The position numbers and the translations under genes are program-made. Below the pieces are notes generated by a model. That model made no database searches. It saw only the letters and a list, made by a program, of their open reading frames with translations, and was not told where the DNA came from. DNA of 64,000 nt from Candidatus Poriferisodalaceae bacterium (GTDB taxonomy: Bacteria; Actinomycetota; Acidimicrobiia; Acidimicrobiales; Poriferisodalaceae), in NCBI GenBank assembly GCA_965212125.1, contig OZ243045.1:1909521-1973520 (forward strand), in the 5' to 3' direction. Each line of letters begins with the position of its first letter. Position 1 is the first letter of the stretch. Below, piece after piece: positions 9,625 to 37,672 of the stretch.

Positions 9625-10428
9625 TTGAATCTGGGCCCAGACCTGCTGCTGGCCGCGGCTTGCGTTGTGGCGGGGATTATCAATGCGATGGCGGGCGGCG
9701 GTTCGCTGATAACGGTGCCGCTGCTGACTTTTTTTGCCGACCTGGGCGGGCTTGTCGCCAACGGCACTAACCGCATCGGCGTGCTAACGCAAAATCTTTC
9801 TTCTGCTTTTAGTTATCGCCGCTCCGGGGTGTCGGGCGTGCGCAAGGCGGTGTCGGTTTTGGTGCCGGTGTTTGCTGGGTCACTGGTTGGCGCACTTGTG
9901 GTGGCAAACATCAGCGAAACCGCGTATGAAATAGCGTTCGGTGCGCTAATGGTGCCGTTGCTGGTGCTGAGCTTTTGGCGCCCCAGGAAAAAGAGTGCGA
10001 CCGCGACCGAGCCGGCGGGAGCTTCGCCACAGTCCACCCCGCCACTCACTCAGCCTCCCAGCGCGGCGATTGCTTGGCCGCGCTATGTGACTATCCCGGT
10101 GTTTGTTGCCATCGGCATGTACGGCGGCGCTTTTCAGGCTGGTGTTGGCTTGGTGATCGTGTTGGCGCTGTCGCGTGCTGGGCTTGATTTGGTTAACGCC
10201 AACGCTGTGAAGGTGGTCGTGATCGCCATGCTGACTGCGGTGGCGATACCGGTGTTCATCTTTTCTGACCAGGTGCATTGGGGCTATGCGGTGATTGTCA
10301 GCGTGGGATTTGCCGTTGGCGGTTGGATTGGTGCGCATTTCGCGGTGCGGGGTGGCGAGCGTTTGATCCGGCCGGTCATGTTGGTGGCGGTGGTCGCCCT
10401 GGCTGGTCGAATGGTCGGGCTGTACTAG
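9625..10428 (+). CDS. TauE/SafE family anion (sulfite) exporter-like membrane protein
   Basis: 267-aa polytopic protein with the AGIINAMAGGGSLITVPLL N-terminal motif and an internal duplication typical of TauE/SafE. Confidence 0.85.
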   Translation: MNLGPDLLLAAACVVAGIINAMAGGGSLITVPLLTFFADLGGLVANGTNRIGVLTQNLSSAFSYRRSGVSGVRKAVSVLVPVFAGSLVGALVVANISETAYEIAFGALMVPLLVLSFWRPRKKSATATEPAGASPQSTPPLTQPPSAAIAWPRYVTIPVFVAIGMYGGAFQAGVGLVIVLALSRAGLDLVNANAVKVVVIAMLTAVAIPVFIFSDQVHWGYAVIVSVGFAVGGWIGAHFAVRGGERLIRPVMLVAVVALAGRMVGLY

Positions 10429-10464
10429 ATCGCTGGTTTTTCAGCACGGGTGTTTTTAGTCGGG

Positions 10465-10470
10465 TACAAT
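10465..10470 (+). promoter_or_regulatory. candidate -10 box TACAAT, possible leaderless transcript starting at ATG 10478
   Basis: TACAAT ends 7 nt before ATG 10478 and there is no SD between them. The identical element sits before copy 2. No convincing -35 box. Confidence 0.35.
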
Positions 10471-10471
10471 C

Positions 10472-11221
10472 GTGGGTATGGGACTAGTAAAGCTGTTTTC
10501 AATACCCGCTGTCGTTGTTCTGTTTGCTGTTGCTTGCGGTGCGACGGAAGCGTTACGCACAGAGGGCGCACCACAAGCTGATGCGGTTGGGCGGCTGGGC
10601 GCGGCTGGGATTGTTGCTGCTGCTGCGCCTGACGTTGAGCCTGAAACCGCTGAGGAGGAGGTTGCTGGGCCTACGCATTCACACGGTGAGGACACGCACA
10701 CGCATGAGGTAGCCGTTGAGGAAGAGGCTGCGCCTGAGCCTGAAGCCGTTGAGGAGGAAGAGGTGGTTGAGCCTGAGACCGATGGTGCGGAGGTTGAATC
10801 CGAAATCATTTATGAAGAGATTGTGGAGCTTGAGGATACTGATTTTGAGGATTTGTGGAACGAGATTGTTATAGGTACAACCGAAGAGGGGTATCCCATT
10901 ATTGATGAAAGCAACAGACCCAGAGTTTGGGATTTGCTTACGGATGATATGTGGGAGTTGACGTATGTTTTCTACGGGGAAGACACCAAAACCACTTCCA
11001 CAATCAGTAGTTCAGGCCCGCCTGGCGGCATCATAATTCCAGAGGGTACCAAAGAGGAAAGGGATGCCTGGTTCAGAGAGCAGGGCGTAGACCCGGATAG
11101 GGTGGTTCATAATCCAATAACTACTTACAAGTTTCCTGCTACTACTACCGAAGCAGAAGCAAAGGCTTGGCTTAGAAAACAAGGCATAGACCTCAGCCTG
11201 GCAAAAATTGCTTACGAGTAG
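10472..11221 (+). CDS. hypothetical lipoprotein with His-rich acidic linker (copy 1)
   Basis: Signal peptide plus lipobox-like LFAVAC. The linker contains THSHGEDTHTHE within an E/A/P/V-rich repeat. The C-terminal domain of about 140 aa belongs to no family I recognise. AGA/AGG/ATA codons are used. The start may be ATG 10478. Confidence 0.7.
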   Translation: MGMGLVKLFSIPAVVVLFAVACGATEALRTEGAPQADAVGRLGAAGIVAAAAPDVEPETAEEEVAGPTHSHGEDTHTHEVAVEEEAAPEPEAVEEEEVVEPETDGAEVESEIIYEEIVELEDTDFEDLWNEIVIGTTEEGYPIIDESNRPRVWDLLTDDMWELTYVFYGEDTKTTSTISSSGPPGGIIIPEGTKEERDAWFREQGVDPDRVVHNPITTYKFPATTTEAEAKAWLRKQGIDLSLAKIAYE

Positions 11222-11245
11222 CTGAGATTTGGCTTCCGTTTTCTG

Positions 11246-13252
11246 ATGCGTCTACGTTTTCTTTTCTATCTTTTTATTGCCGCTCTTGTCGTGTCGGGTG
11301 GGGCGTTTCTGTTTTCTGGCACAGTGGAAGCAGAGCATAGGGAATCTTCTACTTACATACACAGGAACTGGTGGGTGCTACCTGCAACAAACGAAAGAGT
11401 CTGTCATATTCCTGACACTAGCGTGGGCGAGAATGAATGCCACGATGTTTTTGTCCCAGAAAGGAAAGAAACAACCGAATGTGAAGGCAAGGGAAACTGT
11501 GGGCACGGGCCGCCAGAGCCTGGAATGATTTTGGATGTGAGGGAAGGCTGTGGGGATGGAATCTGCGATGGGCACGATGACATTGAAATACCAGGCGAAG
11601 AAAGACTACATTGCCCGACGCCGGGTAAGACACACTTAGATGCTGATGATCCTGAATGTGATAGCGCCCCTCCCCCTCCTTGCGATATGAGTGCTACCGC
11701 TACACATGAAAACAGGTGGGTTGCTGGAAGTTCCACTGCCGGACACACCACCATAAGAGGCCATGGCCCCGAAAGCTTTAATTACTGCAACCACAAGCAC
11801 ACAGACCCAATTGGTGGTGGCGGTATTGAGGAGGAGGTAAGATTTGTTTGTGATGACCGTAGGTGGGATAGGACTGATAGGCACGAGGAACAGGTACGAA
11901 CTCATCCAGGGCACTCTCACGAGTGGCGGAGACATAATGGCTATTGCAACCATGAACACAAACCTGCTTGTAATCGCAGTTTGACAAGCACTCACGCAAG
12001 GGTCGCAATAGAGGATCACCCTAACAACGGAAGACACGGAAATCTAAGTCACAGAAGAAACGACACTTCTTCTGCCTCAGTCAGCACGAGAGTGGGAAGC
12101 AGCTATGGCACCTATTGCCCTCATAGTCATCCCGTTCCGCAGCAATGTTTCCCTGTGAGCGTGGAGCATGCTGCCCTTCCGCGACACGACATAAACGGGC
12201 AATCCACACCTGCTGAGACTGTTATTTGGGCTAGCGACAACGATAGTCAGAACAGCCTTGTTGATCCTACTAAACCTCTTTATTGGGAAGTTAGAGATAA
12301 CCATAACTCCCACGACCACACTTACAATTCAACAACGTTTAAATTTCCGTGTCCTCACAGGCATGGGAAGCCTATTTTGGTTTGTGATTTGGTAGATGTG
12401 GATGATGGTGAGGATTGGGCTTCGGACATTGGGTATCAGTTATCTCACCAAGCTAAGTGGGAAATCCGTGATGGGAAGATACTACGGATAGAAAGGAAAT
12501 GGTCTGGATCGCAGCTAGCAAAGCGCTTATGGGGTAAAAATCCTAGTTTCCTCATAAGGAACGGAGGGGGGTTTGGAAGCGATAATCTAACTGTTTTAGG
12601 AATCCATCAAGATGGTTTGCTGACAGGCGATAGTGGTGGTGATAGCAGCGACCGAACTTTTTTCAACTCTGAGATTACTGAGGTTAGTCCGCATCCCATA
12701 ACTGGCCGCCAGCAAATGCGCTTATCGCACTTAGATCACACAGGCTCATTTCTCGCTGCTAACGGGATAACTTACAGGACATGGGGTGAAGTCGGTTTCT
12801 TATGGCTGGACTGGAACACTCTGTTCGGAAGCGATTGCCCCATCCCGGTGGATCTAATACCACTTCCACCACCCCCGCCTCCTCCACCTCCTCCTCCACC
12901 AGTCTGCAGCCCGTATCACACTGGAAATCATGTCTTCAACGCCTCGTGGTTTCCATATCTCTCATATCTGTTAAATCACACTGAGATAAAGCAACACGAC
13001 GACCAACTCAACGACGGAGTCCTACTCTGTGACCATAAACATCCTCCACCACCTCCCCCTTGCGATGATGCGGATCAGGCTCGCCTTGCAAGACATAAGA
13101 GGCTCGGGCATGTTTGGGATGTAAGTAAGAACCACACTGAAATAAAGAGCCATGGTTGGCTTCATGTGTGTGACCCGTCTCATAACCACACTGTGCCTGA
13201 GTTAGATCCAACTGATCAGGGTAGCGACGTCGAAGATAGCGACCCTTCTTAA
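11246..13252 (+). CDS. hypothetical secreted His/Cys-rich protein with C-x-H-x-H modules and polyproline tracts
   Basis: An uninterrupted 668-codon ORF in about 45-55% GC DNA. The N-terminal signal-like segment is LFIAALVVSGGAFLFSGTVEA|EH. By my count it has 51 His and 22 Cys. No family recognised. Confidence 0.7.
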   Translation: MRLRFLFYLFIAALVVSGGAFLFSGTVEAEHRESSTYIHRNWWVLPATNERVCHIPDTSVGENECHDVFVPERKETTECEGKGNCGHGPPEPGMILDVREGCGDGICDGHDDIEIPGEERLHCPTPGKTHLDADDPECDSAPPPPCDMSATATHENRWVAGSSTAGHTTIRGHGPESFNYCNHKHTDPIGGGGIEEEVRFVCDDRRWDRTDRHEEQVRTHPGHSHEWRRHNGYCNHEHKPACNRSLTSTHARVAIEDHPNNGRHGNLSHRRNDTSSASVSTRVGSSYGTYCPHSHPVPQQCFPVSVEHAALPRHDINGQSTPAETVIWASDNDSQNSLVDPTKPLYWEVRDNHNSHDHTYNSTTFKFPCPHRHGKPILVCDLVDVDDGEDWASDIGYQLSHQAKWEIRDGKILRIERKWSGSQLAKRLWGKNPSFLIRNGGGFGSDNLTVLGIHQDGLLTGDSGGDSSDRTFFNSEITEVSPHPITGRQQMRLSHLDHTGSFLAANGITYRTWGEVGFLWLDWNTLFGSDCPIPVDLIPLPPPPPPPPPPPPVCSPYHTGNHVFNASWFPYLSYLLNHTEIKQHDDQLNDGVLLCDHKHPPPPPPCDDADQARLARHKRLGHVWDVSKNHTEIKSHGWLHVCDPSHNHTVPELDPTDQGSDVEDSDPS

Positions 13253-13425
13253 GACGCACCCCAGACGCGCCTGCCAAACAGTGAGCGTGAGTCATTGCGC
13301 CCTCGCACAGCTGTGTCGTGTGCAAGGCAGGATCGCTGGTTGGTGCCTTAGAGAAAGGGTGCGGTTGAGGGCGAGCCAGCGAATGCCTCACTACAGCCCA
13401 CATCGCCATTCACCTAGCAACCGAG

Positions 13426-13566
13426 TGCGGTGATTGTCAGCGTGGGATTTGCCGTTGGCGGTTGGATTGGTGCGCATTTCGCGGTGCGGGGTGGCGAGCG
13501 TTTGATTCGGCCGGTCATGTTGGTGGCGGTGGTCGCTTTGGCTGGTCGAATGGTCGGGTTGTACTA
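13426..13566 (+). pseudogene. promoterless 3' fragment of a tauE/safE gene (last 47 codons)
   Basis: Colinear with 10287-10428. It starts abruptly in mid-gene, has no upstream ORF in frame, and ends with the same TAG. Confidence 0.8.
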
Positions 13567-13603
13567 GATCGCTGGTTTTTCAGTACGGGTGTTTTTGGTT
13601 TGG

Positions 13604-13609
13604 TACAAT
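13604..13609 (+). promoter_or_regulatory. candidate -10 box TACAAT (copy 2)
   Basis: Same element and same spacing to ATG 13617 as in copy 1. Confidence 0.35.
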
Positions 13610-13610
13610 C

Positions 13611-14339
13611 GTGGGTATGGGACTAGTAAAGCTGTTTTCAATACCCGCTGTCGTTGTTCTGTTTGCTGTTGCTTGCGGTGCGACGGAAGCGTTACGCACA
13701 GAGGGCGCACCACAAGCTGATGCGGCTGGGATTGTTGCTGCTGCTGCGCCTGACGTTGAGCCTGATGCCGTTGAGGAGGAGGTTGCTGGGCCTACGCATT
13801 CACACGGTGAGGACACGCACACGCATGAGGTAGCCGTTGAGGAAGAGGCTGCGCCTGAGACCGATGGTGCGGAGGAAGAGGTGGTTGAGCCTGAGACCGA
13901 TGGTGCGGAGGTTGAATCCGAAATCATTTATGAAGAGATTGTGGAGCTTGAGGATACTGATTTTGAGGATTTGTGGAACGAGATTGTTATAGGTACAACC
14001 GAAGAGGGGTATCCCATTATTGATGAAAGCAATAGAGCCAGAGTTGGTGATTTGCTTACGGATGATATGCGGGAGTTGACGTATGTTTTCTATGGTGAAG
14101 ATACTGTAACTACTGAAACAATCAAAGTACACGGCCCACCTGGCGGCATCATAATTCCAGAGGGTACCAAAGAAGAAAGGGATGCCTGGTTCAGAGAACA
14201 AGGCATAGACCCAGATACTGTGATTCGTAATCCAATAACTACTTACAAGTTTCCTGCTACCACTACCGAAGCAGAAGCAGAAGCTTGGCTTAGAAAACAA
14301 GGCATAGACCGCAGCCTGGCAAAAATTGCTTACGAGTAG
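13611..14339 (+). CDS. hypothetical lipoprotein with His-rich acidic linker (copy 2, paralog)
   Basis: 242 aa with the same signal/lipobox and THSHGEDTHTHE motif. It differs from copy 1 by linker indels and clustered substitutions in the C-terminal domain. Confidence 0.7.
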   Translation: MGMGLVKLFSIPAVVVLFAVACGATEALRTEGAPQADAAGIVAAAAPDVEPDAVEEEVAGPTHSHGEDTHTHEVAVEEEAAPETDGAEEEVVEPETDGAEVESEIIYEEIVELEDTDFEDLWNEIVIGTTEEGYPIIDESNRARVGDLLTDDMRELTYVFYGEDTVTTETIKVHGPPGGIIIPEGTKEERDAWFREQGIDPDTVIRNPITTYKFPATTTEAEAEAWLRKQGIDRSLAKIAYE

Positions 14340-14406
14340 CTGAAATTTAGCTTCATTTTTGTTGCCGACCTGTCTGCTTTAAGCGGCTAGTCCGCCAGCG
14401 GCTATG

Positions 14407-15555
14407 TCAGATGGCTTTTGCCATGGCTGTGATGGCTTGATTGACCATCTCGGGTGAGGTAGCGAAGTTAAGCCGTGCAAAGCCTTTTCCTTCAACTCCG
14501 AAGTCTGGGCCGGGATTAAGCGCAACCCGACCTTTCTCCAGAAAAACCTCAGACGGGTCGTCACCTAACTCCAGCGCGTTGCAATCAAGCCACGCAAAAT
14601 AAGTGGATTGCGGTATGTGATAGCGCACGCCTGGCAAATGCTCAGCCACCAGCTCAGCCACCAAATGGCGGTTGCTGTCAAGGCCAACAAGCAGTTCGTC
14701 CAGCCAAGGCTGGCCATGCTCCCAGCCTGCCACGGTGGCGACTTGGCCCAGCTCGCTGAGGCCACCGATCTTACGCTTCGGTGTTTTCAAAACTGCTGGC
14801 CCGTAACGCTGCGATGCGCTATGAACGAACGCAATCCGGGCGGCCGCCATGTTGAACGACTTGGTGGCAGCGGTAAGAGTGATCGTGCGCTGCGACGCCG
14901 TCTCGCTGCTAGCGGCCACCGGCAGATGCTTGTGTGGGGAGTACACGAGGTCGCAGTGGATCTCGTCCGAAATGATTACTAGGTCGTTCCGCTCGGCAAT
15001 GTCGGCGATGACGCCAAGCTCAGCTTCGGTCATGACAATGCCGCTGGGGTTATGCGGCTGGCACAAAAACAAAGCCTTGACTCCGTCTTGCGCTGCGACC
15101 GACTCAAGGTGATCCAGATCAAGCCGCCAACCCTGCTCGGTTTCTTTCAACGGGTTACGCACAACCCGGCGCCCGTTCTTTTCAACCGACGAATAAATCG
15201 GCGGATACAGCGGCGTCTGCAGCACAATGCCGTCGCCGGGTTCAGTGAGATTGTCAATCGCTAGCTCAAGACCCTGCATCACGTCGTGCACAACGAGGAT
15301 TTCAGCGGCGCTGGTCTGCCACCCGAAAGCGGTTTGCATGCGGTTCACAAAGGTTTCCAGCACCGGAATCGGCTTGTCGTAAAAGTCGTAGCCGAGCCCG
15401 CCAACGGATATTCGTTCGGTCAGCGCTTGTGCGATGCAAGGCGCAGGCTCAAGGTCCATGTCTGCAACCCAAGCCGCCAGCACGCCCGGCCCGTAGCGAC
15501 TCCACTTGGCGCCCGGTCGGTTGACGATGCGTTGCTGGTCAAGTTCAAAGATCAT
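14407..15555 (-). CDS. PLP-dependent aminotransferase class I/II, MalY/PatB-type C-S lyase
   Basis: RPGAKWSRY N-terminal block, LCQPHNPSG, TKSFNMAA (PLP-Lys region). Confidence 0.85.
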   Translation of the reverse strand: MIFELDQQRIVNRPGAKWSRYGPGVLAAWVADMDLEPAPCIAQALTERISVGGLGYDFYDKPIPVLETFVNRMQTAFGWQTSAAEILVVHDVMQGLELAIDNLTEPGDGIVLQTPLYPPIYSSVEKNGRRVVRNPLKETEQGWRLDLDHLESVAAQDGVKALFLCQPHNPSGIVMTEAELGVIADIAERNDLVIISDEIHCDLVYSPHKHLPVAASSETASQRTITLTAATKSFNMAAARIAFVHSASQRYGPAVLKTPKRKIGGLSELGQVATVAGWEHGQPWLDELLVGLDSNRHLVAELVAEHLPGVRYHIPQSTYFAWLDCNALELGDDPSEVFLEKGRVALNPGPDFGVEGKGFARLNFATSPEMVNQAITAMAKAI

Positions 15556-36361: not shown

Positions 36362-37672
36362 CTATAGATCAGCCGGTTCGTCAAGCGCAGCTAGCTCCTC
36401 AGGCTCTTTTAGCCCTGTTAATTCGGGTTTAGTTATTGAATCTGCCCTGGTTTTTATGGTTTGTGGCGAGGTGATTTCCTTTTTTGCGTGTGCGCCAAGC
36501 TCTTTAATTTTTCGGGCACTGGCCACGAAACGACTCTCAAGTGATCCAATGGCAGCGTTCTGGGCGTTGACTGCGTTGTTAAGCGCGTGGCTGACTTTAT
36601 TTACGTGCTCGACAAGTATCCCCAGCCGATCATAGAGTTCAGCGGCCTCATCTATTATCTCCTGTGCATTGTTATGTAGGTCATGCTGTTGCCAAGCTGC
36701 CGCGACGGTTTGTAAAAAAGCAATCAACGAACTCGGTGTGACAATAAGTACTTTGTGATCAATCCAGGCTCTTTCCAAAAGCTTCGTATCCCCGTCCAAT
36801 GCCGCGATCAAGAGCGCATCGCTTGGCAAAAACATCACAACAAAATCGGGTGAGCCGTTAACCAAATTTGCGTAATCACGCTCGCTCAGTTCTTTGGCCG
36901 TCCCTAGCACTGACCTTGCATGGGCTGCTAAGTACTCTTGCTGACTATTTTTGTCTTCGGCATCGTGAGCCCGCTTGTAATCCTCAATGATTGCCTTAGA
37001 ATCAATGACTACGTTTGACCCGCCAGGGATATACACAACCACGTCAGGGTCTTTGTGTTTTTTCTTGTTACTCGGTTCAACATTTAGTCGTACTTGCTCG
37101 TTAAAGTCAATGTGTTTACTCATGCCGGCAAACTCAAGGACATTGCGCAGGGTCTGCTCTCCCCACCTACCCCGATCACCCATCGATGAGCCCAGTATTT
37201 GGCGCAACGCTTCTGTTTCACTACTTAGCTTGCCGACCTGGTTGTTTACCCGCTCGTAAGCAGTGATGCGTTTTTCTTCTATATCGCCAACATGGCTTTC
37301 AAACTTCTTAAGCGTTTCGGCGATCGGCTTCAGCAGGCCATCAATCTTTGTGCTGCCGAGGTCGTGTTGTGTAGCAAACTGCTCTTTGGCTTGCTTTAGA
37401 AAAGCCTCCTGATTTGTTTGGGTGATTTCGGCGGCGATGCCCTTGAAGTGAGCGTCAAGGTCGTCACGTGTTTTTTCCATTTCTTCAATGCGTGCCTCAT
37501 GAGCTGCGGTAGCTGCCGCCAGTTCGGTTTCTAGCTGGTCTGTTTTTGCAGTTGCTTCGCGTGCCTTTGTATCTGCCTGATTACGCTGGTTGATGGCACG
37601 GATTAGCAGGACAACGGCAACGATCGCCGCTGCAGAAACAGCAATGATTATGGAGATTAGAACAGGAGTCAT
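36362..37672 (-). CDS. rmuC: DNA recombination protein RmuC
   Basis: N-terminal TM segment, a long coiled coil and a C-terminal RmuC nuclease-like region. GC is about 45-47% by hand count on two lines. Confidence 0.8.
   Translation of the reverse strand: MTPVLISIIIAVSAAAIVAVVLLIRAINQRNQADTKAREATAKTDQLETELAAATAAHEARIEEMEKTRDDLDAHFKGIAAEITQTNQEAFLKQAKEQFATQHDLGSTKIDGLLKPIAETLKKFESHVGDIEEKRITAYERVNNQVGKLSSETEALRQILGSSMGDRGRWGEQTLRNVLEFAGMSKHIDFNEQVRLNVEPSNKKKHKDPDVVVYIPGGSNVVIDSKAIIEDYKRAHDAEDKNSQQEYLAAHARSVLGTAKELSERDYANLVNGSPDFVVMFLPSDALLIAALDGDTKLLERAWIDHKVLIVTPSSLIAFLQTVAAAWQQHDLHNNAQEIIDEAAELYDRLGILVEHVNKVSHALNNAVNAQNAAIGSLESRFVASARKIKELGAHAKKEITSPQTIKTRADSITKPELTGLKEPEELAALDEPADL

Follow-up and report, generated by a model that had tools for sequence, protein, structure and literature searches.

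The gene at positions 11246–13252 (forward strand; ATG start, stop codon included) of a 64,000-nucleotide stretch of contig OZ243045.1 from a Candidatus Poriferisodalaceae bacterium, the whole of which is called the window here, is an intact coding gene under selection. Its 668-residue product, X668, carries recurring Cys/His modules. By analogy with known exported proteins, we consider it plausible, though somewhat short of probable, that X668 is exported by Sec and binds a divalent metal through an array of His clamps, each closed by a disulfide. The flanking lipoprotein genes are named lipoA and lipoB, and class I/II aminotransferase is abbreviated as AT.

Coding nature and base composition of X668

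The probability of 668 open codons at the base composition of X668 is ~7.5e-15, and the longest open reading frame (ORF) among 300 shuffles of the segment has 213 codons. These ORF statistics and the motif statistics given below indicate that X668 is not a chance frame, as the earlier note had judged from a 2-kb ORF in the lowest-GC DNA of the window. The bin at 12–14 kb, i.e. the X668 region, is indeed the minimum of guanine-cytosine (GC) content in the window. The GC content of X668 is 49.5% in a 62% GC genome, and the GC content at third codon positions (GC3) is 44%, compared with 77% in the adjoining aroC. This base composition marks the gene as foreign. The translation contains 51 His (7.6%), 22 Cys, and 60 Pro residues; the numbers of His and Cys and the Cys positions listed previously are all correct on recount. 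The mature product is computed to be an acidic protein of ~71 kDa with an isoelectric point of 5.7.

X668 is not found in a collection of ~15 billion proteins, in which nine start variants were looked up, whereas the lipoA and lipoB products (P0002 and P0003, respectively) are present there. Either X668 was left uncalled by public annotation, or it was omitted from the collection. This absence should be noted, since the two flanking lipoproteins are in the collection and seem to come from one and the same contig; it would fit a non-functional relic, that is, foreign DNA still open or a gene never expressed. The lack of an obvious Shine-Dalgarno sequence before the ATG of X668 and the rearranged locus would fit a relic as well. 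However, the probability of the open frame is minute, the Cys and His residues are selectively conserved in the paralogue, the repeated motifs diverge synonymously, and the ORF is intact beside a pseudogene piece that has fallen to 68% identity, as described later. A relic is very unlikely.

The repeated C-x-H-x-H module

The C-x-H-x-H cores of X668 begin at Cys181, Cys234, Cys291, Cys369, and Cys595 (n = 5), and a sixth unit, C642-DPSHNH, is a variant of the core. The recurring modules proposed in the earlier note are thereby confirmed as five exact cores and the Cys642 variant. The residues closing the modules are Cys242, Cys301, Cys380, and Cys606. The number of C-x-H-x-H strings expected by chance is 0.128 per protein, as opposed to the 5 observed (Poisson P 2.5e-7); the maximum in 20,000 composition-preserving shuffles of X668 was 3, and none had 5. 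Cys202 in the string RFVCDD represents a seventh, degenerate module without HxH.

The module core is described as [aromatic]-C-x-H-x-H-x(2-6)-C-x2-[V/L]-[S/T]-x2-H. The consensus of 13 aligned modules from X668 and its relative P0001 (see below) is T-E-I-[E/K]-x(3-8)-[F/W/Y/L]-C-x-H-x-H-x(2-6)-C-x2-[V/L]-[S/T]-x2-H. The string NHTEIK, found at residues 577 and 629, had been taken as a separate repeat, but in this alignment it is the upstream half of a module of ~40–55 residues, with ATEIES...WCEHSH as the equivalent in the paralogue. The DNA copies of NHTEIK and those of YCNH.H in X668 diverge by synonymous substitutions. HxH occurs eight times in X668, and HxxHxH occurs twice (residues 220 and 353).

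The number of Cys residues is even, and the residues are arranged in pairs 8–11 residues apart. A motif scan of X668 gave none of CxxCH, HExxH, CxxC, CxxxC, HxHxDH, and LPxTG; CxxCH is also absent from P0001, and the HCH motif of cupredoxins and multicopper oxidases is absent from the X668 translation. The even number of Cys residues, their paired spacing, and the lack of a redox motif suggest that the disulfides in X668 are structural. The redox scaffold considered previously is not supported, as neither CxxC, CxxxC, nor CxxCH is present. The statement that heme and zincin motifs are lacking does stand: HEWRRH reads HExxxH, not the zincin motif HExxH, and neither X668 nor P0001 has the CxxCH of c-type cytochromes. 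The same scan, together with Pfam, gives no sign of a thiol-disulfide oxidoreductase or a Sco-type copper chaperone (no CxxC, no CxxxC, and no Pfam match), nor of a multicopper oxidase or cupredoxin (no Pfam match, and no HCH despite the eight HxH strings). In the literature, only the WRKY zinc-finger usage of CxHxH was found.

The sequons N-x-[S/T] number ten in X668 (residues 243–649, all three NHT strings included), where ~4 are expected from the composition by a rough hand estimate, and two in P0001.

Relatives of X668 and the probable paralogue P0001

X668 matches no family in Pfam, NCBIfam, PHROGs, or PADLOC, with Pfam thresholds of E <= 1 for the whole protein and E <= 10 for three sub-regions, and nothing significant was obtained in the same libraries for P0001 and both lipoproteins. 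Searches of the PDB sequences with X668 and with a two-sequence profile gave noise only (IL-11 through the polyproline tract) or nothing. The description of X668 as unclassifiable is therefore retained for Pfam, NCBIfam, PHROGs, PADLOC, and PDB. A word-indexed search of 5.8 billion clusters found none for X668, and the P0001 query returned P0001 alone. Scans for patterns back-translated from X668 and from the X668-P0001 alignment, which rely on few peptide patterns, gave no relative in genome, metagenome, or viral contigs, and tblastn of plasmid and phage collections gave no match. In a search of 80 related loci, translated in six frames, with the module and full-length hidden Markov models (HMMs), the window alone matched.

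The single relative of X668 in an exhaustive HMMER search over 1.84 billion representative proteins is P0001 (E = 1e-6; E = 5e-16 in pairwise BLASTP, with 36% identity overall). P0001, a singleton of 534 residues, is from an NCBI/ENA contig of 2,071,822 bp, and no gene for it is present in the window. Most likely, it is a paralogue of X668 in the same genome, judging from the matching contig records of P0001 and P0002/P0003; the earlier reading had missed this likely paralogue. The X668 sequence family is thus new to every library searched and, as far as these sequences indicate, has two members, apparently both in one genome. X668, the flanking lipoprotein genes, and the likely paralogue together represent a family seen in one lineage only.

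The string HCPxxGKxHLDADDxxC, the module, and the terminal LDWNTLFGSDCPIP (14/14 identical) are common to X668 and P0001. In the alignment of the two proteins, 14/15 aligned Cys residues (93%) and 25/36 aligned His residues (69%) are identical, compared with 36% overall; these values come from one pairwise MAFFT alignment, and gap placement may inflate them. Non-conserved Cys and His positions in homologues, which would have spoken against the reading of the earlier note, are not what is found, since Cys and His are the best-conserved residues in P0001.

P0001 carries six modules, three of which are perfect 40-residue tandem repeats, WCEHSHERPACLPVTAAHLAEADPSHLESSATEIESGFRF. An aromatic residue immediately precedes the Cys residue in 9 of the 11 full modules. 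Both features are compatible with a self-modifying or precursor protein, in which [W/Y]-C-x-H-x-H copper sites would drive side-chain cross-links or peptides would be released from tandem units like those of a multi-core precursor. Such a protein would be loosely similar to plant BURP-domain peptide cyclases, in which four CH motifs recur at fixed spacing. This comparison was tested by the Pfam scan alone, in which BURP (PF03181) was not matched by X668. In addition, no maturation protease or modifying enzyme is encoded within the island described below, and the repeats are not separated by cleavage motifs. The chance that X668 is a self-modifying or precursor protein is slight indeed.

The longest stretch identical between the two proteins should also be noted. 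It is LDWNTLFGSDCPIP, which lies in the His-poor core outside the modules. This position would suit an extracytoplasmic metalloenzyme of a new fold, in which the core (residues 381–535, ending in LDWNTLFGSDCPIP) is catalytic or substrate-binding and the Cys/His modules hold a cofactor metal or bind the substrate; paired His residues of the HxH type are well known as metal ligands of Zn and Cu enzymes. On the other hand, the motif scan gave no catalytic signature (HExxH or HxHxDH), no HMM or PDB match was obtained even with the two-sequence profile, and active sites are not usually made up of tandem modules that vary in number. We regard an enzyme as quite improbable.

Domain organization and probable export of X668

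X668 begins with a Sec-type signal peptide at residues 1–29 (11246–11332; all coordinates in this section are on the forward strand), composed of MRLR, a hydrophobic stretch, and TVEA/EH, as identified by hydropathy, the AlphaFold2 (AF2) helix, and the cleavage site assigned by eye. The sole hydrophobic segment of the protein is located at residues 5–23 (KD19 maximum of 2.35), and AF2 places a helix at residues 2–22 with predicted local distance difference test (pLDDT) values >70. Inspection and hydropathy show an n-h-c pattern, and VEA/EH obeys the −3/−1 rule. The signal-like N-terminus noticed previously is accounted for by this single hydrophobic segment after MRLR and the VEA/EH site. X668 is likely exported by Sec, judging from these sequence features. 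Tat export was rejected, as the twin arginine is absent. Neither LPxTG nor a C-terminal transmembrane segment was found as a cell-wall anchor by motif and hydropathy scans.

The signal peptide is followed by the N-terminal Cys-rich region (residues 30–150; 11333–11695), which has nine Cys residues and contains CGDGICDG. HCPxxGKxHLDADDxxC, which is kept in the paralogue, is in this region (nt 11609–11659). Extracellular Cys-rich repeats of the Myxococcus type have CGDGxC. The X668 string CGDGICDG...HCP at residues 102–124 resembles such secreted repeats, but it occurs only once in X668, is absent from P0001, and has no Pfam or NCBIfam match.

The first module array (residues 151–380; 11696–12385) holds 25 His and 8 Cys residues, with four full modules and the degenerate module at Cys202. 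The cores of the array are encoded at 11786–11800 (Cys181), 11945–11971 (Cys234–Cys242), 12116–12148 (Cys291–Cys301), and 12350–12385 (Cys369–Cys380). The array leads into the His/Cys-poor core domain (residues 381–535; 12386–12850), which is weakly predicted to be β-rich. Its C-terminal end, LDWNTLFGSDCPIP, corresponds to nt 12806–12847. The proline run next to the core domain, P541–P552 (12866–12901), is encoded by mixed CCN codons and is read as a linker. The uninterrupted run consists of 12 residues, not of the 13 counted in the earlier note, because residue 540 is Leu; 13 Pro residues are found within residues 539–552. A second proline run is located at residues 600–605. Long proline runs need EF-P for translation. 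The C-terminal extension (residues 553–668; 12902–13249) is absent from P0001 and consists of two modules, NHTEIKQH...C595-DHKH-P6-C606 (13028–13063) and NHTEIKSH...C642-DPSHNH (13169–13189), and an acidic tail. The AF2 model of X668, built from the two-sequence alignment, has a pLDDT of 31.9, which is too low for the model to be used.

The flanking lipoproteins

X668 is flanked by two genes for orphan lipoproteins on the same strand. lipoA (10478–11221) encodes 247 residues identical to P0002, with the lipobox LFAVAC, and lipoB (13617–14339), a second copy, encodes 240 residues identical to P0003, with 91% protein identity to lipoA. In both lipoproteins, the lipobox is accompanied by a THSHGEDTHTHE stretch, a linker of acidic character, and a C-terminal domain that is ~130 residues long. 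The lipobox was recognized in both by a pattern match (...VVVLFAVAC/GATE). The only database relatives of the lipoprotein domain are P0002 and P0003, which are 100% identical to lipoA and lipoB. No significant Pfam or NCBIfam match places the lipoproteins among cluster A-I solute-binding proteins of the ZnuA/AdcA type, the best match being Btc22 with E = 0.4. The AF2 model of lipoA from a two-sequence alignment has a pLDDT of 46.9, likewise too low for use, and a Foldseek search of the PDB with this model gave nothing at E <= 0.001. The C-terminal domain holds an internal two-fold motif, KEERDAWFREQGVDPD and TEAEAKAWLRKQGIDLS.

The ratio of nonsynonymous to synonymous substitution rates (dN/dS) between lipoA and lipoB is 0.43 overall, indicating mild purifying selection. 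The two genes are mosaic, with a dS of 0.04 up to codon 100 and of 0.20 thereafter. The residue differences cluster at residues 148–179 (W150G, W159R, and SSS to KVH). A diversity-generating retroelement was rejected by eye as a source of these differences, as the mismatches are not adenine-specific and there is no nearby reverse transcriptase ORF.

The gap between the stop codon of lipoA and the ATG of X668 is 24 bp, and a simple scan found no terminator-like site there. The lipoprotein genes have GC3 of 41–47%, foreign like that of X668 (44%). That X668 may work with the flanking lipoproteins, as proposed previously, is made plausible by the short gap, the common strand, the similar GC3, and the result of the terminator scan; this part of the proposal stands as a plausible one. 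A −10-like box, TACAAT, is found on the forward strand at 10465–10470, ending 7 nt before the lipoA ATG, and a second is found at 13604–13609 before lipoB. These boxes were read straight from the sequence and were not reported by a consensus promoter scan. The lipoprotein ATGs have no Shine-Dalgarno sequence, as would fit transcripts without leaders, a common type in Actinomycetota. Since TACAAT ends 7 nt before each lipoprotein ATG, the boxes may mark leaderless promoters and suggest a leaderless lipoA-X668 transcript.

Proposed metal binding and its precedents

Metal binding by X668 is predicted from its motifs and by analogy. Outside the cytoplasm, the two Cys residues of each module would form a disulfide closing a small hairpin. 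His residues i and i+2, on one face of a strand, would compose a three-His site together with the downstream His, and the metal bound there would be a divalent transition metal (Zn, Cu, or Ni). With six to seven sites of this kind around a β-rich core and a rigid polyproline linker, X668 would be a multi-site extracytoplasmic metal scavenger or buffer. X668 is probably co-transcribed with the upstream lipoA and may exchange metal with its product, as PhtD does with AdcAII.

An exported protein with repeated His-based metal sites beside a lipoprotein gene is of a kind already known. The Pht proteins of streptococci are surface proteins with five HxxHxH units that bind one Zn each; they are composed of short β units, and their genes are in an operon with the lipoprotein gene adcAII, to whose product Zn is passed (PMC3842936). 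PhtD/AdcAII may be regarded as the nearest functional precedent for X668. The relation is an analogy and not membership, because PF04270 is unmatched, the repeated unit is of another type, and no solute-binding protein can be recognized in the lipoprotein. X668 and Pht are similar in that both are large, exported, and built from several short His-motif units with variable linkers, and in that both genes adjoin a same-strand lipoprotein gene whose product has a His-rich stretch; X668 also holds the two HxxHxH strings at residues 220 and 353. Contrarily, there is no homology, the PF04270 HMM (Strep_his_triad) being unmatched by X668. The X668 unit is C-x-H-x-H closed by a second Cys, whereas the Pht units lack Cys. 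Of the four to six HxxHxH triads that would be expected, X668 has two and P0001 none. The lipoprotein beside X668 does not belong to the ZnuA/AdcA-type solute-binding proteins, and X668 comes from an actinobacterium and not from a firmicute.

His-rich loops or tails are also found in metal-handling proteins such as Hpn, HypB, SlyD, and the ZnuA/AdcA loops, where they are low-complexity segments on recognizable domains. The alternating His/acidic clusters, e.g. THSHGEDTHTHE in the lipoproteins and DNHNSHDH in X668, are similar to these loops. However, the positions of the His residues in X668 are fixed within a conserved module bracketed by Cys, and X668 has no known domain.

Several observations weigh against metal capture as the role of X668. 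Pfam analysis of the neighbours found no metal transporter or metalloregulator gene near X668, and an Rfam scan found no riboswitch in the island. The lipoprotein is not recognizable as a cluster A-I solute-binding protein in Pfam and NCBIfam. The AF2 pLDDT of 31.9 leaves the hairpin and the three-His geometry as pure inference. His-rich composition occurs in non-metal contexts too, and P0001 as annotated has no clear signal peptide. The conservation statistics rest on one pairwise alignment because the family has two members.

A broader proposal is possible but rather doubtful. It holds that C-x-H-x-H-x(2-6)-C is an undescribed disulfide-stapled three-His module, and that X668, P0001, and the orphan His-motif lipoproteins form a new extracytoplasmic metal-capture system confined to a sponge-symbiont lineage of Acidimicrobiia, horizontally acquired and kept at a variable genomic hotspot. 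If the module is a true metal site, a compact motif of ~40 residues would be added to the extracellular metal-binding units, which would help in the annotation of other His/Cys-rich orphans and in protein design, and uncultured sponge symbionts would seem to have metal capture as an accessory trait. Secreted orphans are frequent in metagenome-assembled genomes (MAGs); the X668 module is unusually clean and well conserved. With two members among ~15 billion predicted proteins, X668 shows how isolated a well-formed family can be.

The island and its probable history

The neighbours of X668 in the window are housekeeping genes by Pfam, namely AzlC, PAC2, chorismate synthase, TauE/SafE, AT, SURF1, and an S9 peptidase. 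The nearest genomes are MAGs of Acidimicrobiales/Candidatus Poriferisodalis, with identities of 62–65% for TauE and ~76% for AroC. Poriferisodalis is placed in the family Poriferisodalaceae of Acidimicrobiia; we take the lineage to be sponge-associated, and the organism is uncultured. A literature search on Poriferisodalis found no papers. The order PAC2-aroC-TauE-AT-SURF1-peptidase is common to 14 syntenic relatives, in most of which the TauE-AT gap is 36–183 bp. In the window, this gap is occupied by a low-GC island of ~4 kb (10429–14406), which is missing from the 14 syntenic Poriferisodalis-like genomes, and neither X668-like nor lipoprotein-like genes are found in the 80 related loci. The region 10429–14406 is therefore a genome-specific low-GC island at a variable TauE/AT junction, because the relatives lack X668 and the lipoproteins or carry other genes there. 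These other genes are an 817-residue Beta_propel lipoprotein at 10897–13350 of locus L007 and a 149-residue coiled-coil-like ORF at 10773–11222 of locus L004. The junction looks like a hotspot for variable surface genes.

This setting bears on the possibility that X668 acts at the surface as a structural or adhesive protein that serves life in the sponge by binding the host matrix or a mineral. The modules would then be disulfide-knotted repeats, and the His residues would provide pH-dependent or material-binding chemistry, e.g. with silica as in glassin. Such a role is in line with the sponge-associated lineage of the nearest genomes, with the different surface/lipoprotein genes of other genomes at the junction, with the absence of a metal-homeostasis context near X668, and with the number of repeats, which varies between X668 and P0001; the perfect tandem repeats of P0001 are like those of many surface proteins. 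Glassin, a silica-associated protein of sponges, is His/Asp-rich, Pro-rich, and His/Thr-rich (PMC10772126), and the mix of His/Asp-rich segments, polyproline, and NHT in X668 recalls these HD, P, and HT domains in composition and shares the sponge setting. However, glassin is an animal protein that is not Cys-structured and has no sequence similarity to X668, so that the resemblance is compositional only. Furthermore, no similarity to adhesins, ELP, or glassin was found in the 1.84 billion representatives, X668 has no cell-wall anchor, and HxH is strictly conserved in a loop closed by Cys, which is more in line with a ligand site than with bulk composition. A surface role of this kind is unlikely, though it deserves some weight beside metal binding by the His clamps.

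The island is organized by direct repeats of ~950 bp that bracket X668. Copy A (10287–11242) takes in the 3'-terminal 142 bp of TauE and continues through the intergenic region and lipoA to 21 bp past this gene, and copy B (13426–14360) is 92–97% identical to it. The repeat homology stops 3 bp before the ATG of X668. A TauE pseudogene fragment (13340–13567, forward strand) consists of a decayed piece fused to the 97%-identical TauE 3' end. The decayed piece, 13340–13425, is ~68% identical to TauE 9975–10061, which codes for the central loop region; its local alignment score is 28, whereas 1,000 shuffles reached 17 at most (z = 14). The two pieces join at the microhomology GCGG[C/T]GATTG. This fusion points to a duplication of long standing and a deletion within it, and to gene conversion that came later and was bounded by the breakpoint. 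Thus, we infer that the TauE'-lipoprotein segment was duplicated long ago and that its TauE part decayed, while gene conversion kept the rest similar. The 2-kb ORF of X668 is intact while the neighbouring TauE piece is down to 68%, which argues that X668 has long been resident in the genome; a frame kept open through the duplication and decay of its neighbour argues for selection. An insertion hotspot is documented by this locus, together with an old duplication whose copies gene conversion has kept alike. The genome-specific island and its ~950-bp direct repeats had been missed in the earlier reading.

The AT gene (14407–15555, reverse strand) is inverted relative to all 14 syntenic relatives, in which it follows TauE on the same strand. 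The start of the inverted gene overlaps the SURF1 stop codon, and the inversion has its left end where the island has its right end. The GC content of the window dips a second time (~54%) at 36362–37672 (reverse strand), which corresponds to an ORF of 436 residues with an N-terminal transmembrane segment and a coiled coil, which by eye presumably resembles the recombination protein RmuC.

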